Origin: a virus
Taxonomy: Duplodnaviria; Heunggongvirae; Uroviricota; Caudoviricetes
Direction: 5' to 3' (one strand)
Length of the DNA: 14,076 nt
Virus record (IMG/VR): IMGVR_UViG_2541047688_000003
Part shown: in pieces, positions 1,144-14,076 of the stretch
Layout of the letters: each line of letters starts with the position of its first letter
Numbering within the stretch: the stretch's first letter is position 1
The notes under the pieces: model-generated
What the model saw: only the letters and a program-made list of their open reading frames with translations
What the model was told of the DNA's origin: nothing
The model's database searches: none
Position numbers and translations under genes: made by a program

Positions 1144-1369
1144 CAGCGATTATCCGTTGGAGTTTTGGGTTTGCGTTTATTGGGAGTTGCGGTTCTGCAA
1201 GCGTTCCTACAAAACGGGAATTTCGGTCAATCATCCAGTAGCGACCAACTTTTATAGCGGGTGGGGCCATCATTTTCCCTTGCGCGTATTTTTTCAGAAC
1301 TCGCTCACTTGGTGCTAAGTCCCCAAATTCTTCTTTAGCCCAGTCCTGTAAAGTGATTAGTCGAGACAT
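1133..1369 (-). CDS. xis: Excisionase-like small basic DNA-binding protein (78 aa)
   Basis: Strong RBS (GAGGAGG) 5 nt upstream of ATG at 1367-1369. Overlaps the int start by 11 nt. Motif APPAIKVGRYW resembles the lambda Xis PPPVKDGREY region. Confidence 0.75.
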   Translation of the reverse strand: MSRLITLQDWAKEEFGDLAPSERVLKKYAQGKMMAPPAIKVGRYWMIDRNSRFVGTLAEPQLPINANPKLQRIIADGC

Positions 1370-1508
1370 TTGTCCTCCTCTTAGCTGCTGAGGGAGTTTG
1401 TGACCGATATATCTGACATGATATTAAGCTCATGGCAGGTACATCTCTTGACTGGTCATAGAGATAAATTTAATGCTGAGAAATGCAGTATTGAATTTAT
1501 CAATTTTT

Positions 1509-7505: not shown

Positions 7506-7638
7506 TTTTTGGGACTCCTGGCTGATTAAGTATGTCGATAAGGCGTTTCCATCCGTCACGTAATTTACGGGTGATTCGTTCAAGTAAAGATTCGGAAGGG
7601 CAGCCAGCAACAGGCCACCCTGCAATGGCATATTGCAT
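7474..7638 (-). CDS. cIII: CIII (FtsH/HflB protease inhibitor), 54 aa
   Basis: ATG at 7636-7638 with AAGGAG RBS 6 nt upstream. [54 protein letters not shown] matches lambda CIII by recall. Confidence 0.85.
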   Translation of the reverse strand: MQYAIAGWPVAGCPSESLLERITRKLRDGWKRLIDILNQPGVPKNGSNNYGYPD

Positions 7639-7752
7639 GGTGTGCTCCTTATTTATACATAACGAAAAACGCCTCGAGTTGAAGTGGTTTACTGAATTTG
7701 GCCACCTGAACAGAGGTGATATGCTCACCTCAGAACAACACAGGTGCCATAA

Positions 7753-7795
7753 TGTCAACGCCACGATGTTTGACCGTTATTTGCCATTTTCATGC
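7753..7795. repeat. IS21 terminal inverted repeat (istB-proximal end)
   Basis: tgtcaacgccacgatgtttgaccgttatttgccatttt aligns, with one gap, to the reverse complement of the other end. Confidence 0.7.
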
Positions 7796-7812
7796 CCGCT
7801 AAGATACTTTCG

Positions 7813-9782
<1,970 letters not shown>

Positions 9783-9840
9783 GTTGATGTCCTTTCTGGT
9801 GTGAGAACCTTAAGGAAACAACATGTTGGGTGGAGCGGAC

Positions 9841-9883
9841 AATCCAAATGGTGAATTACCGTCTTATATCACTGGCGCTGACA
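9841..9883. repeat. IS21 terminal inverted repeat (istA-proximal end)
   Basis: Reverse complement reads tgtcagcgccagtgatataagacggtaattcaccattt, matching the opposite terminus. Confidence 0.7.
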
Positions 9884-10026
9884 GCTGGCAGTTGTATGAG
9901 CGCGGAGAGCTTGTTGATGTGCTGTGGGGGGAACTGGAATGGTCTTCCCCGACAGATGACGATGAGCTGCCGGAAGTCACCGGACCTGCGTGGATAGTCG
10001 ACAATGTGGCGCATTATGGCGGATGA
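9884..10026 (+). pseudogene. 3' remnant of a plus-strand gene truncated by the IS21 insertion or rearrangement
   Basis: Open frame runs from the IS boundary to TGA at 10024-10026 (...SWQLYERGELVDVLWGELEWSSPTDDDELPEVTGPAWIVDNVAHYGG) and is followed by a terminator. The frame upstream lies within IS DNA. Confidence 0.35.
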
Positions 10027-10038
10027 AGTATGACGGAG

Positions 10039-10067
10039 ACGGGCGGGCAACCGCCCGTTTCTTTTCC
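10039..10067 (+). terminator. Intrinsic terminator
   Basis: ACGGGCGG-GCAA-CCGCCCGT 8-bp GC-rich stem with tetraloop, followed by TTCTTTTCC. Confidence 0.6.
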
Positions 10068-10127
10068 GGTAAAGGATGTCGCCGTGCTCCTCTTTTTACT
10101 GCGCCGGCTGACGCGGCGCGGCATAAA

Positions 10128-10351
10128 CGCTGCCTGTGGTCAGTGTCCCGCGTCCGGTGGGCACGGGACGGGCGCTTTTACCGCTCCCGGCTGGCGTCGG
10201 TGACAGTGTACGCCAGCCTGTCGCCCTTTTCTGATGAACGCCCTTCAAGCCGCTTTCGCGGCATAGCCTTGCCGTCAGAAAGACGACGGCTGCGGTATTC
10301 CACGGTCGGCCTGACCCGTTACCGGACGCGGTGAACAGCCCACAGGCAGCG
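10128..10351 (+). promoter_or_regulatory. Long imperfect inverted repeat; candidate single-strand promoter (Frpo/ssi-like) or other structured regulatory element
   Basis: Arm 10128-10157 (cgctgcctgtggtcagtgtcccgcgtccgg) is about 25/30 complementary to arm 10322-10351. Arms are about 165 nt apart in a GC-rich noncoding region upstream of the methyltransferase gene. Confidence 0.4.
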
Positions 10352-10409
10352 GGGAACGGGCACCACAGGGGTGCCCTCCCGGTGCCCTCTGTAAGAGAAG
10401 GAGTTTTGT

Positions 10410-11093
10410 ATGTCCCGTTTTGTCCTCGGTAACTGCATCGATGTTATGGCCCGTATTCCTGATAACGCCATTGATTTCATACTGACTGACCCGCCGTACC
10501 TCGTCGGTTTCCGTGACCGTTCCGGGCGCACCATTGCCGGTGATGTTAATGATGACTGGCTGCAACCTGCCAGCAATGAGATGTACCGCGTACTCAAAAA
10601 AGACGCGCTGATGGTCAGCTTCTACGGCTGGAACCGTGTCGATCGCTTTATGGCCGCCTGGAAACGCGCCGGATTCAGCGTGGCAGGGCACCTCGTGTTC
10701 ACCAAAAACTACACATCCAAATCTGCGTATGTCGCGTACCGTCACGAATGCGCTTACATCCTGGCAAAGGGCAGTCCGGCCCGGCCCCGTAACCCTCTGC
10801 CGGATGTGCTGGGCTGGAAATATTCAGGCAATCGTCATCACCCGACGGAAAAGCCCGTTACCAGCCTGCAACCACTGATTGAGAGCTTCACACATCCGAA
10901 CGCGATTGTGCTGGACCCGTTTGCAGGCAGCGGCTCAACCTGCGTCGCTGCCCTCCAGTCCGGACGCCGGTATATCGGTATCGAGCTGCTTGAACAGTAT
11001 CACCGTGCCGGACAGCAACGACTGGCCGCCGTGCAACGGGCCATGCAGCAGGGGGCCGCGAATGATAACTGGTTTGAACCGGAGGCTGCGTAA
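10410..11093 (+). CDS. Orphan DNA amino-methyltransferase (DPPY motif, beta-class N6-adenine/N4-cytosine), 227 aa
   Basis: AAGGAG RBS 7 nt upstream. Catalytic motif TDPPYL near the N-terminus and SAM-binding motif DPFAGSGST near the C-terminus. No restriction endonuclease partner is visible in the window. Confidence 0.9.
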   Translation: MSRFVLGNCIDVMARIPDNAIDFILTDPPYLVGFRDRSGRTIAGDVNDDWLQPASNEMYRVLKKDALMVSFYGWNRVDRFMAAWKRAGFSVAGHLVFTKNYTSKSAYVAYRHECAYILAKGSPARPRNPLPDVLGWKYSGNRHHPTEKPVTSLQPLIESFTHPNAIVLDPFAGSGSTCVAALQSGRRYIGIELLEQYHRAGQQRLAAVQRAMQQGAANDNWFEPEAA

Positions 11094-11315
11094 ATGAACT
11101 ATGCCGGACACGAAAAACTTCGCGCCGACGTGGCGGAGGTGGCCAACACCATGTGTGACCTTCGGGCCAGGCTGAACGATATGGAGCATCGCTGTCGCTT
11201 TGATTCCGATGTGCTTGTTGAACGCCTGACACGCCAGACGCTGTATCGCGCCAATCGCCTGTTCATGGAGGCGTATACCGAAATTCTGGAACTGGATTCC
11301 TGCTTCAAAGATTGA
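11094..11315 (+). CDS. Hypothetical protein (73 aa)
   Basis: ATG immediately after the methyltransferase stop codon, GGAGG 10 nt upstream. Co-oriented in the same gene block. Confidence 0.6.
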   Translation: MNYAGHEKLRADVAEVANTMCDLRARLNDMEHRCRFDSDVLVERLTRQTLYRANRLFMEAYTEILELDSCFKD

Positions 11316-11328
11316 GAAGGAGACGAGA

Positions 11329-11763
11329 ATGTACGGAACATGCGAAACGCTATGCCGGAAGCTGGCAGCAAAGTATTCGGGAGACACGCCACTGATGCTG
11401 GTTATCTGGTCCCCGGAAGAAATTCAGGCCCTCTCTGACGGAATGGATATTGCCCTGACCGATCATGAAATCAGGACTGTCCTGGCGCGCCTGGAGGACA
11501 TCCCGGAAGACCAGCGGACTGAATCCGGTATTTCTTCCGGCGTGGCGATGGAGATCATCAATAACGTGAGCGAAAACCGCCAGGTGACTGTCCCTGCTGA
11601 ACTGCTGGCGTCCCTGATTCAGACCGCTGAACAGGCATTGTGGAAACGTGAATGGGCCGCCTGGGATCATGGCCTCGCCGTCCCGGAATGCGTCACCCGC
11701 CGTCAGGCGGTGGTTAATCAGGTCCGCATCCTGCTGAAAAACAACACACACGAAAACGACTGA
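11329..11763 (+). CDS. Plasmid leading-region protein, DUF1380-like (144 aa)
   Basis: AAGGAG RBS. Shares the motif R(Q/H)VTVPA(E/V)(L/M)L and a near-identical start region with the 13466-13888 ORF. Family name from recall, unverified. Confidence 0.75.
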   Translation: MYGTCETLCRKLAAKYSGDTPLMLVIWSPEEIQALSDGMDIALTDHEIRTVLARLEDIPEDQRTESGISSGVAMEIINNVSENRQVTVPAELLASLIQTAEQALWKREWAAWDHGLAVPECVTRRQAVVNQVRILLKNNTHEND

Positions 11764-11766
11764 TGT

Positions 11767-11790
11767 TATCGCCGCCTCCGGGCGGCGATA
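11767..11790 (+). other. Perfect hairpin without U-tract between genes
   Basis: TATCGCCGCC-TCCG-GGCGGCGATA (10-bp stem, 4-nt loop) immediately after the stop at 11761-11763. No T-run follows. Confidence 0.5.
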
Positions 11791-11807
11791 CAGGGAGTTC
11801 ATGAATT

Positions 11808-12578
11808 ATGAATGAAATGCTGAATGCACTGATTTATCGCCACGCCAGCAACCTGTTGCTGGCGCAGGGCTGGCCGGAAGAGACGGATGTTGACCAGCGT
11901 AACCCGAAGTATCCGGGCTGGATCAGCATTTACGTGCGGCTGGATGCGCCCCGGCTGGCGACGTTACTTATCAAGCGTCACGGCGGCGTACTGCCGCCGC
12001 TCCTGGCCTCTGCCATTCAGAAACTGACCGGAACCGGAGCGGAACTTGTTCTGTCCGGCAGTCAGTGGCAGTCGCTGCCGGTACTTCCGGCAGACGGAAC
12101 GCAGGTGTCTTTCCCGTATGCCGGTGAGTGGCTGGCAGAGGACGAAATCAGGGCCGTTCTTGGTGCGGTACGCGATGCAGTATGCAGTGTCAGTTACCAG
12201 GTGGCAGAAGATGCGCGGCGTATCCGTGCGGCGCTGACCACCACCGGTCAGACGTTGCTGACCCGCCAGACGCGCCGCTTTCGCCTGGTGGTGAAGGAAA
12301 GCGATCACCCCTGCTGGCTCGATGAAGACGACGAAAACCTGCCCGTGGTGCTCGATGCCATCCTGAACCGGGGCGCTCGTTTTTCGTCGGTGGAAATGTA
12401 TCTGGTCAGTGAGTGTGTGGAGCATATCCTGTCCAGTGGGCTGGCCTGCGATATGCTGCGTATACCGGATGAACCGCCCCGCCGCTGGTTTGACCGTGGT
12501 GTTCTGCGGGAGGTGGTCCGGGAAGCCCGGAACGAAATCCGCAGCATGGCGGATGCCCTGGCAAAAATCCGGAAATGA
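11808..12578 (+). CDS. Uncharacterised protein (256 aa)
   Basis: Long plus-strand ORF with AGGGAG upstream. No recognisable motif. Embedded between antirestriction-type genes. Confidence 0.75.
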
Positions 12579-12585
12579 TGACGCT

Positions 12586-12611
12586 GGCGGGGAAAAATCT
12601 CCGCCTTTTCC
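12586..12611 (+). terminator. Intrinsic terminator
   Basis: GGCGGGG-AAAAAT-CTCCGCC stem (one G-U pair) followed by TTTTCC, 8 nt after the stop codon. Confidence 0.5.
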
Positions 12612-12720
12612 AGTCGGTCCCCGGAAAGAGCAAAAGGATGTCGCCGCAGGCTCCTCTTTACCCGGCCATGTGGGGCATGGCCTTGTGGGTTTTCAGTTAT
12701 GTGGCCTCAGCGTCGTGTGC

Positions 12721-12956
12721 GGGCTGTGCCGTGCCTCCATCGTAGCCGGGCTTCTGCGGGCGGGTTGCAAGGTAAGGTGAACCGCTGCGGTCACCCGGTC
12801 CCTCCTTCCCGTCTGCCGTGATTTTCCGGTCGTTCACCCGCTCAGATTTCGCGGTCTCACCCTCCAACTCCCGTCAGCCGTGCGCGTCAGGCTGCGGCTT
12901 CCCTTGCGCCCTTGCAACCCTGCAGGCCCGGCAAAGATGGAGGCACGGCACCGCCC
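12721..12956 (+). promoter_or_regulatory. Second long imperfect inverted repeat (about 50-nt arms); candidate single-strand promoter or structured regulatory element
   Basis: Arm 12721-12772 pairs with arm 12910-12956, including a perfect 14-nt core gccgtgcctccatc / gatggaggcacggc. Lies upstream of klcA. Confidence 0.4.
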
Positions 12957-12993
12957 GGTGTCGCGGAATATGTGAACAACGGAGGAAAACATC

Positions 12994-13419
12994 ATGCAAT
13001 ATGCGAAACCTGTCACTCTGAATGTTGAAGAGTGCGACCGTCTCTCCTTTCTGCCTTACCTGTTTGGCCTGGATTTTCTGTATGCCGAGGCATCTGTGTA
13101 CACGCTGGCGAAAAAAATGATGCCGGAATATGAAGGCGGATTCTGGCACTTCATCCGCCTGCCGGACGGTGGCGGTTACATGATGCCGGATGGCGACCGT
13201 TTTCATCTGGTTAACGGTGAAAACTGGTTTGACCGTACCGTGAGTGCTGATGCCGCAGGCATCATCCTTACCTCCCTTGTGATTAACCGCCAGTTGTGGC
13301 TGTACCACGACAGCGGGGATGCAGGGTTGACACACCTGTACAGGATGCGCGATGCGCAGTTGTGGAGCCACATCGAATTTCACCCCGAATGCAACGCGAT
13401 TTACGCGGCACTTGACTGA
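12994..13419 (+). CDS. klcA: ArdB/KlcA-family antirestriction protein (141 aa)
   Basis: GGAGG RBS. Motifs [30 protein letters not shown] and [12 protein letters not shown] parallel ArdB/KlcA proteins as recalled. Confidence 0.85.
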
Positions 13420-13428
13420 TTAACGGAC

Positions 13429-13447
13429 GGGGCGGCAATGCCGCCCC
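13429..13447 (+). other. GC hairpin without U-tract upstream of the next RBS
   Basis: GGGGCGGC-AAT-GCCGCCCC 8-bp perfect stem, followed directly by AAAGGAGACGAGAAC and ATG at 13466. Confidence 0.45.
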
Positions 13448-13465
13448 TGTAAAGGAGACGAGAAC

Positions 13466-13888
13466 ATGTACTGTACTGTTAAAGAAATCATCCGCGATGT
13501 ACTGGATACAGACGTGCCGGACAGTGAATGCGTTTTTGCCGTGGTGCTGACCCGTGGGGATGTGCGTCACATAGCCCAGGACTGGAGTCTGACAGACGAT
13601 GAGCTGGAAACCGTCATGCAGCGGCTGGACGATGCTTTTGTATATGGCGCATGTGACAGAGTTGTTTCCGATATTGTAAATGAACTGATGGAAGAAAAGC
13701 GCGCCAGCCGTCATGTGACAGTCCCGGCGGTGATGCTGGAAAAAGTGATGGCGCTGGCAGGCAGTGAAATGAAGCGCCTGTATGCCGTCGGGAGTGAGAA
13801 CGGGGGCGACGGTGACGCATTCGTCAGGGAGGAACGCGAAGCAATGGACGTTGTGTTACAGGCGCTGGACGGGGAGCACATGTCATGA
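13466..13888 (+). CDS. DUF1380-like paralogue (140 aa)
   Basis: Same RBS and start context (aaggagacgagaacatgtac) as the 11329 gene. Shared RHVTVPAVML motif. Confidence 0.75.
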   Translation: MYCTVKEIIRDVLDTDVPDSECVFAVVLTRGDVRHIAQDWSLTDDELETVMQRLDDAFVYGACDRVVSDIVNELMEEKRASRHVTVPAVMLEKVMALAGSEMKRLYAVGSENGGDGDAFVREEREAMDVVLQALDGEHMS

Positions 13889-14076
13889 ATATCAGCACAG
13901 AAACCCGCGAAATTCTGCGTAATTACAGGGCCGTGATTAATGCGCGGCGTCGTGAAATGGGGCAGAAACCGCTCACCACCGCGCAGATTGTTGATGAAAT
14001 CTGCGATTTTGTGGCGAATCAGCAGGCGGTTTTCCTGGGCGGTCACTACATCTTACAGGGCAGCAGAAACAGGTGA
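13885..14076 (+). CDS. Hypothetical small protein (63 aa)
   Basis: ATGA overlap with the preceding gene. Stop codon TGA at 14074-14076, the last three bases of the window. Confidence 0.55.
   Translation: MNISTETREILRNYRAVINARRREMGQKPLTTAQIVDEICDFVANQQAVFLGGHYILQGSRNR

Follow-up and report, generated by a model that had tools for sequence, protein, structure and literature searches.

It is established that, in conjugation, the transferred strand (T-strand) enters the recipient 5' end first from oriT and is the template for the leading genes. The class 1 hairpins of this strand (Frpo or ssiD of F, and ssi1-3 of ColIb-P9; Masai and Arai 1997) lie in leading regions and are described as being read by host RNA polymerase in the single-stranded form only, with early and transient expression as the result. 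According to Wen et al. 2025 (Nucleic Acids Res, PMC12672017), six leading operons of pESBL are strongly induced in transconjugants, as judged by RNA-seq, and a large T-strand hairpin is present upstream of each of them (the hairpin screen retained folds below -75 kcal/mol per 300-nt window). The transcription starts of all six operons were obtained by 5'-RACE with transconjugant RNA. The hairpin of the M.EcoGIX operon is the class 3 element, a class characterised by its position, its fold and a mapped start, and the authors state that classes 2 and 3 are conserved in F. The F copies were named ssp1a/b, ssp2 and ssp3 by Fraikin et al. 2026 (bioRxiv 10.64898/2026.01.09.698686), who described ssp3 as a portable promoter equivalent in strength to ssp2 but devoid of roadblock activity, and who found that replacement of ssp2 by ssp3 in F restored transfer to an EcoGIII-restricting recipient.

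The window analysed here (the whole stretch of 14,076 nt) contains an element that is very probably the class 3 or ssp3 single-stranded DNA (ssDNA) promoter of IncF/IncI leading regions, switching on the methylase gene next to it. Positions 10030-10384 are base-for-base the same as the region 5' of M.EcoGIX in pESBL-EA11 (NC_018659.1, 100% identity), so that the hairpin is homologous to the one on which class 3 was defined, and the F plasmid copy (NC_002483.1) is 97% identical. The element lies directly upstream of an M.EcoGIX-type methylase gene in a leading region with its genes pointing toward oriT, and it shares with class 3 of pESBL and ssp3 of F the sequence, position, methylase, leading-region gene order and folded strand. 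Since both sequence and context match, we identify it with the published element. The report on pESBL (PMC12672017) places the start inside the hairpin and attributes the activity in transconjugants to its single-stranded state for this identical sequence, and the exchange of ssp2 for ssp3 in F supports this. Nothing substantive distinguishes the window from pESBL, except that the DUF1281 gene upstream is cut by IS21 and that the plasmid segment abuts prophage DNA. The element has the class 3 type sequence, known since December 2025; having been described experimentally in 2025, it is not new, and more than 5000 plasmid records contain it at an identity of at least 90%. Induction in transconjugants, the mapped start and portability were demonstrated by others; sequence identity, structural conservation and strand bias come from the present analysis. 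The identity with pESBL, the published function, and the covariation and strand asymmetry described below support the proposal, made previously from the sequence, that the repeat allows early expression from transferred ssDNA. The features discussed are listed in Table 1.

Table 1. Features of the class 3 element, its surroundings and its relatives (positions refer to the window unless a locus, L, is given).
Feature	Position	Strand	Remarks
Terminator-like hairpin followed by a T-run	10036-10061	+	11-nt arms, 91% complementary; ends the DUF1281 gene remnant
Whole class 3 / ssp3 ssDNA promoter element, very probably; branched hairpin of about 240 nt	10121-10359	-	full-length profile-HMM match; pESBL 100%, F 97%
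Left arm of the repeat, 3' arm of the outer stem on the transferred strand	10128-10158	-	putative non-template side
Right arm of the repeat, 5' arm on the transferred strand	10321-10351	-	putative template side leading to the methylase
-10-like hexamer GACACT in the conserved mismatch zone of the outer stem	10142-10147	-	putative -10
Second -10-like hexamer TACACT, in the 12-nt apical loop of the inner hairpin 10193-10222	10205-10210	-	helix 11, covariation
Invariant 27-nt block TATGCCGCGAAAGCGGCTTGAAGGGCG at the three-way junction, with -35-like TTGA	10239-10265	-	
Predicted transcription start, about A10344; 5' UTR about 66 nt	10342-10346	+	7 nt downstream of GACACT, paired template arm
Small conserved hairpin GGGCACC-ACAGG-GGTGCCC, between promoter stem and RBS	10358-10376		helix 2, three compensatory pairs
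Methylase RBS AAGGAG	10398-10403	+	ATG at 10410
DNA methylase, M.EcoGIX homologue, 227 aa	10410-11093	+	Pfam N6_N4_Mtase, E 1.6e-38
Class 2 / ssp2 / 'Frpo3' copy, 2.4 kb downstream, upstream of the antirestriction gene 12994-13419	12729-12953 (arms 12729-12775, 12908-12953)	-	z -4.2
Divergent second copies	L010 40-276; L034 838-1053; L050 250-477; L031 249-476; L026 692-877		
Class-3-like three-way-junction hairpin, Achromobacter/Bordetella	L036-L041, L048, about 1245-1475	-	
Partial core, Paraburkholderia	L042-L044, about 1300-1400		

The plasmid part of the window (7749-14076) is an IncF/IncI leading region, 100% identical to pUTI89 and many other plasmids. The stretch 1-7684 matches the lambdoid Escherichia phage ev017 at 100% identity; it carries integrase, recombination genes and cIII, together with the cIII thermoregulator RNA on the minus strand (7593-7651, Rfam RF01804). 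The phage part abuts the IS21-bounded plasmid segment at about 7685-7748, a junction found in none of 5,426 complete E. coli genomes, and which could be due to an IS21-mediated integration or be an assembly chimera. IS21 (istA/istB, 7813-9782, minus strand) splits the DUF1281 gene 5' of the hairpin element; as in pUTI89, only the C-terminal 67 codons of this gene (9823-10026) are found beside the promoter, and in pESBL the gene precedes the element. On the other side, the plus-strand genes comprise the methylase (96% identical to M.EcoGIX of pESBL-EA11, WP_000086153.1), DUF1380 genes and the KlcA/ArdB-type antirestriction gene. The order methylase, klcA, ssb, psiB and then oriT, all on the plus strand, is common to pUTI89, pESBL and F, with oriT beyond the end of the window. 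The leading genes being on the plus strand and oriented to oriT, the minus strand of the window is therefore the transferred, template strand. The sequence-only reading had placed the repeat between an intrinsic terminator and the ribosome-binding site of the methyltransferase. This location is correct, but the consensus terminator scan did not call the upstream hairpin, so that its designation as a terminator derives from the sequence alone.

That reading had also reported a 30-nt arm complementary at about 25 of 30 positions to a second one about 165 nt away. The repeat was recovered with arms of 31 nt, complementary at 26/31 positions (84%) and separated by 162 nt. Of 300 dinucleotide-preserving shuffles of 9900-10600, none attained 26, and the highest match of any 31-nt inverted repeat in them was 22/31. 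The stretch had rightly been called GC-rich (65-66% G+C for the element, vs 51% for the whole window). Folded as ssDNA, the 301 nt from 10100 to 10400 were far more stable than shuffled sequences on both strands, with -92.9 kcal/mol (z -6.3) for the plus strand and -94.0 kcal/mol (z -7.1) for the minus strand, no shuffle being as good in either case; the minus-strand value is below the -75 kcal/mol of the published class 3 screen. The minus strand of 10120-10362 folded at -71.4 kcal/mol (z -5.6). Between this stem and the ribosome-binding site, the small hairpin at 10358-10376 shows a double change in the F copy that preserves pairing, and it can be extended by G.T pairs that are possible on the minus strand only. 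It could be a DNA feature or a stem-loop of the mRNA leader.

We compiled 54 loci with methylase relatives, taking one genome per species, and a recognisable homologue of the element was found upstream of the methylase in 24 of them (72-98% identity). A second copy is located further upstream in 5 of these 24 loci; such copies, more divergent and 0.4-1.2 kb upstream of the first, were seen in some Citrobacter, Klebsiella, Raoultella and related plasmids. The second copy of locus L010 precedes an ORF of 155 aa, and class 3 promoters can therefore drive genes other than that of the methylase. Twenty copies with 72-98% DNA identity were aligned in the orientation of the transferred strand. Their consensus structure has 80 base pairs in 11 helices, arranged as an outer stem (the inverted repeat) that a conserved internal loop interrupts, followed by a short helix and by a three-way junction bearing two hairpin domains. 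Pairing is conserved across the homologues, with standard pairs in 98.1% of the cells, vs 38-45% when the partners were slid by 1-3 columns. Compensatory double changes were observed at 17 pairs, nine of them in the outer stem, whose helices 3 and 4 (24 pairs, 9 compensatory) were paired in 95-99% of the cells. None of 500 column shuffles reached the observed pairing or covariation score.

The two strands of the homologues differed in stability. The ssDNA fold of the minus strand was more stable than that of the plus strand in 20 of the 20 homologues, by a mean of 5.5 kcal/mol, and the energy of the consensus fold was -106 kcal/mol for the minus strand vs -86 for the plus strand. The counts of G.T vs A.C pairs pointed the same way (134:6 for the minus strand), but this figure is inflated, the structure having been predicted on the minus strand; the reciprocal count on the plus strand's own structure was 71:9, and the 44 pairs common to both predictions gave 9:1, with small numbers. 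This count was dropped as a strand test, as it is biased by the structure prediction step, and we therefore relied on the fold energies of the individual sequences. Covariation and strand asymmetry are consistent with selection for the structure on the transferred strand, although covariation is blind to the difference between DNA and an RNA of the same sense.

No canonical duplex sigma-70 promoter and no consensus terminator was found in 9800-10500, the former result being in favour of a single-strand promoter. Given that RNA polymerase has to exit toward the methylase, in the folded minus strand the 5' arm would serve as template and the 3' arm as non-template strand. Of the -35- and -10-like hexamers that a promoter within the paired stem might be expected to show, the second was found, in the mismatch zone, but no contiguous -35-like hexamer occurs 16-18 nt upstream of GACACT on the same arm. 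The 3' arm contains an invariant ACACTG, and the hexamer reads GACACT, or CACACT in some copies. Its A at -11 and T at -7 were invariant in all 22 copies and never paired (T.T in 20/20, A.C in 19/20 and A.G in 1/20), with positions -9 and -8 paired; the bases facing A-11 and T-7 lie at 10332 and 10336. A divergent second copy keeps the mismatches through other bases (C.T and C.A). Region 2 of sigma-70 flips A-11 and T-7 out of the helix, so that the hairpin appears to offer a -10 that is already open; class 1 hairpins also have mismatches in the -10 region of the stem. We infer from these sequence patterns that GACACT on the 3' arm acts as the -10 element, with A-11 and T-7 held unpaired.

With GACACT as the -10, the start is predicted about 7 nt downstream, near A10344, which corresponds to about position 54716 of pESBL. 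The template base at this position always gives a purine, the corresponding pair (72:285) being C-G in 16 copies and T-A in 4. Two other arrangements were considered and rejected. The patch TTTATGCC, AT-rich and located where the stem ends at its 3' foot, was dismissed as the -10 because it lacks conservation, even in F (GGCAGGAA) and in Klebsiella-type copies. In the reverse orientation, with the 5' arm as the non-template strand, the invariant TGGAATA has neither a -35 partner nor a T-7.

The most conserved part of the element is the junction block TATGCCGCGAAAGCGGCTTGAAGGGCG, which was unchanged in the 20 aligned homologues and had one substitution in the divergent second copy. Stacked on the next helix, its TTGA (10245-10248) would read TTGA|CC. 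The spacing of such a composite -35 would be plausible in the enterobacterial copies, with 15 nt on the template side and 18-19 nt on the other side, but would not fit in the Achromobacter copies, with about 22 nt. We consider a -35-like role of the junction TTGA to be speculative, and hold it with low confidence. The apical loop of the inner hairpin displays a second hexamer with the pattern TA[A/C]A[A/C]T, in which the T, A, A and T positions are invariant; TAAAAT is found in 10 of the 20 homologues and TAYAAA at the equivalent loop tip of the Achromobacter copies. As a -10 for the methylase, TACACT or TAAAAT was rejected on geometric grounds, since the loop has no separate template strand, and the hexamer is left unexplained by the promoter model. 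The loop-displayed TAnAnT might be an extra docking site for sigma-70. Taken jointly, these features may describe a three-way-junction ssDNA promoter with a weak GACACT -10 in which A-11 and T-7 are mismatched, with the junction block (GGCTTGAAGGGCG) as a split -35-like contact, and with an ancient architecture that accompanies this family of ssDNA methylases outside Enterobacterales as well, in Burkholderiales (Achromobacter, Bordetella and, in part, Paraburkholderia). We offer this combined view tentatively, and regard it as possible rather than probable.

The accessible parts of the published class 3 reports (Wen et al., PMC12672017; Fraikin et al.) mention pESBL and F only. In our locus set, the core of TATGCCGCGAAAGCGGCTTGAAGGGCG was also present in Paraburkholderia, Achromobacter and Bordetella loci. 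Contigs of Achromobacter and Bordetella petrii have the junction core GGTCAAGGGA-CGTGGAATA…TTTATGCCGCGAAAGCCCTTGAA upstream of methylase homologues with 61-65% aa identity. These copies share the long outer stem, the three-way junction and the second hairpin domain (z -6.6, 11 covarying pairs), and their 3' arm carries a better -10, TATGCT, with A-11 bulged. The Paraburkholderia copies keep the core and GACACT, with a contiguous TTGAAG-N16-GACACT, and their fold was no better than that of shuffled sequences (z -1.1), so that they can only weakly be suggested as members of the class 3 architecture.

The likeness to class 1 is one of working. A class 1 hairpin consists of one long stem, A/T-rich at its tip, in which -35 and -10 hexamers can be recognised, whereas class 3 combines a high G+C content (66%) with a three-way junction and lacks a contiguous -35. 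A blastn search (word size 7) against pUTI89, which has two class 1 copies, returned a 13-nt word only (E 0.29), and no homology to class 1 is likewise reported in the accessible part of PMC12672017. No -35/-10 pair with a 16-18 nt spacer was present on the stem arms, and the consensus structure is a three-way junction. The element is therefore Frpo-like in its working but lies outside the Frpo family, from which it differs in sequence, architecture and base composition. Membership in class 1 (Frpo) or in class 2 was rejected, as blastn showed no sequence homology to either and the class 2 element shares only a 27-nt motif upstream of the hairpin. Class 2 (ssp2, upstream of klcA/ardB) is an element of the same kind in the same plasmids and, like class 3, is preceded by AAGGATGTCGCC. 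It differs in sequence and in its recognisable TTGCAA ... TACGAT, carried by the 3' arm of the class 2 copy in the window; moreover, ssp2 stalls complementary-strand synthesis and ssp3 reportedly does not (Fraikin et al. 2026). The 12-mer AAGGATGTCGCC occurs twice in the window (10072-10083 and 12634-12645, 0.09 expected), 45-95 nt upstream of the class 3 and class 2 hairpins. This motif is also present in the Frpo'4 and Frpo*3 sequences of Samuel et al., and the class 2 hairpin of the window resembles the candidates Frpo'4, Frpo*1 and Frpo*3 of Samuel et al. 2024.

Folded ssDNA also offers promoter-like duplexes to polymerase in the RNA-polymerase-dependent sso of rolling-circle plasmids and in the hairpin promoters of phage N4. 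These elements differ in serving priming, or a phage-encoded polymerase, and we know of no sequence or architectural relationship between them and class 3.

Could the structure act as RNA instead? The sequence-only reading had mentioned an unrecognised structured RNA, which might act in cis as a regulatory leader of the methylase mRNA, or be a small antisense RNA from the minus strand. The strong conservation of the structure, with covariation, fits both, and the mRNA leader could contain the small hairpin of 10358-10376. As an antisense RNA would be identical in sequence to the T-strand, covariation taken alone is compatible with it. However, no match to the covariance models of Rfam 15 was obtained, either at the gathering threshold in this region of the window or, in 9980-10450, at E<=1. 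The better-folding strand is antisense to the methylase mRNA; in all 20 homologues the mRNA-sense strand is the less stable one, many of its pairs would become A.C mismatches, and the mRNA would exclude the hairpin, as its predicted start lies near the base of the stem. No strong promoter was found for an antisense RNA, and the published data credit the promoter activity to the ssDNA form. We thus consider a structured RNA extremely improbable. A main role in DNA processing, as a single-strand initiation (priming) site or as a roadblock for complementary-strand synthesis, is very unlikely. Transcripts of class 1 (Frpo) prime this synthesis and the class 2 hairpin (ssp2) stalls it; DnaG primase initiates at CTG, a triplet contained in the invariant ACACTG. 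Yet ssp3 was described as a promoter 'but with no roadblock activity' (Fraikin et al. 2026), no priming from it has been reported, and the operon immediately downstream of the element is induced and has a mapped start. Priming could be an added function of the promoter rather than an alternative to it.

The stretch had been called noncoding from its sequence, although RefSeq annotates a hypothetical protein, WP_001310011.1, at 10023-10334 of the window, in pUTI89, in pESBL and, in a variant form, in F. If this protein were truly encoded, the repeat would be incidental. Its frame was not conserved, since the homologues have indels of 1 and 2 nt and the longest ORF shifts in frame and length (33-104 aa), and it had no Pfam match; the stretch is therefore taken as noncoding. 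The substitutions are compensatory for base pairing rather than codon-like, the ORF crosses the terminator-like hairpin, and we give this annotation practically no credence. The same is true of a chance repeat, or of the terminal repeats of a small MITE-like mobile element, which the 31-nt imperfect repeat around some 160 nt and the second upstream copy of some plasmids might bring to mind: besides the shuffling result, the element, with its compensatory changes, holds the same place just 5' of the methylase gene from genus to genus, no direct repeat flanks it in the sequence, and its inner domains are better conserved than its arms.

The class 3 promoter would thus work as follows. The minus strand would enter the recipient as ssDNA in conjugation (the copy in this window being in a plasmid segment joined to prophage DNA), and the element of about 240 nt would fold into the long outer stem formed by the inverted repeat, carrying the three-way junction. 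Host sigma-70 RNA polymerase would recognise the duplex-like stem and, with the 5' arm as template, transcribe out of the hairpin into the methylase gene, and the early methylase would methylate the plasmid before its exposure to restriction. Complementary-strand synthesis would then remove the hairpin, leaving no duplex promoter, and expression would stop.

Since the window holds two recently defined non-Frpo classes, the present result is a useful and correct annotation rather than a discovery, and the remaining interest is in mechanistic details and phylogenetic spread. The comparative results (three-way junction, -10 mismatches and Burkholderiales homologues) amount to testable predictions on how RNA polymerase reads a promoter that has no canonical -35, and they suggest that a structure-aware model could find the element in plasmids where BLAST fails. 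In the first minutes after a plasmid has entered by conjugation, promoters active on ssDNA determine which of its genes are expressed, and the early leading genes (methylase, anti-restriction and SOS inhibition) help resistance plasmids past host defences.
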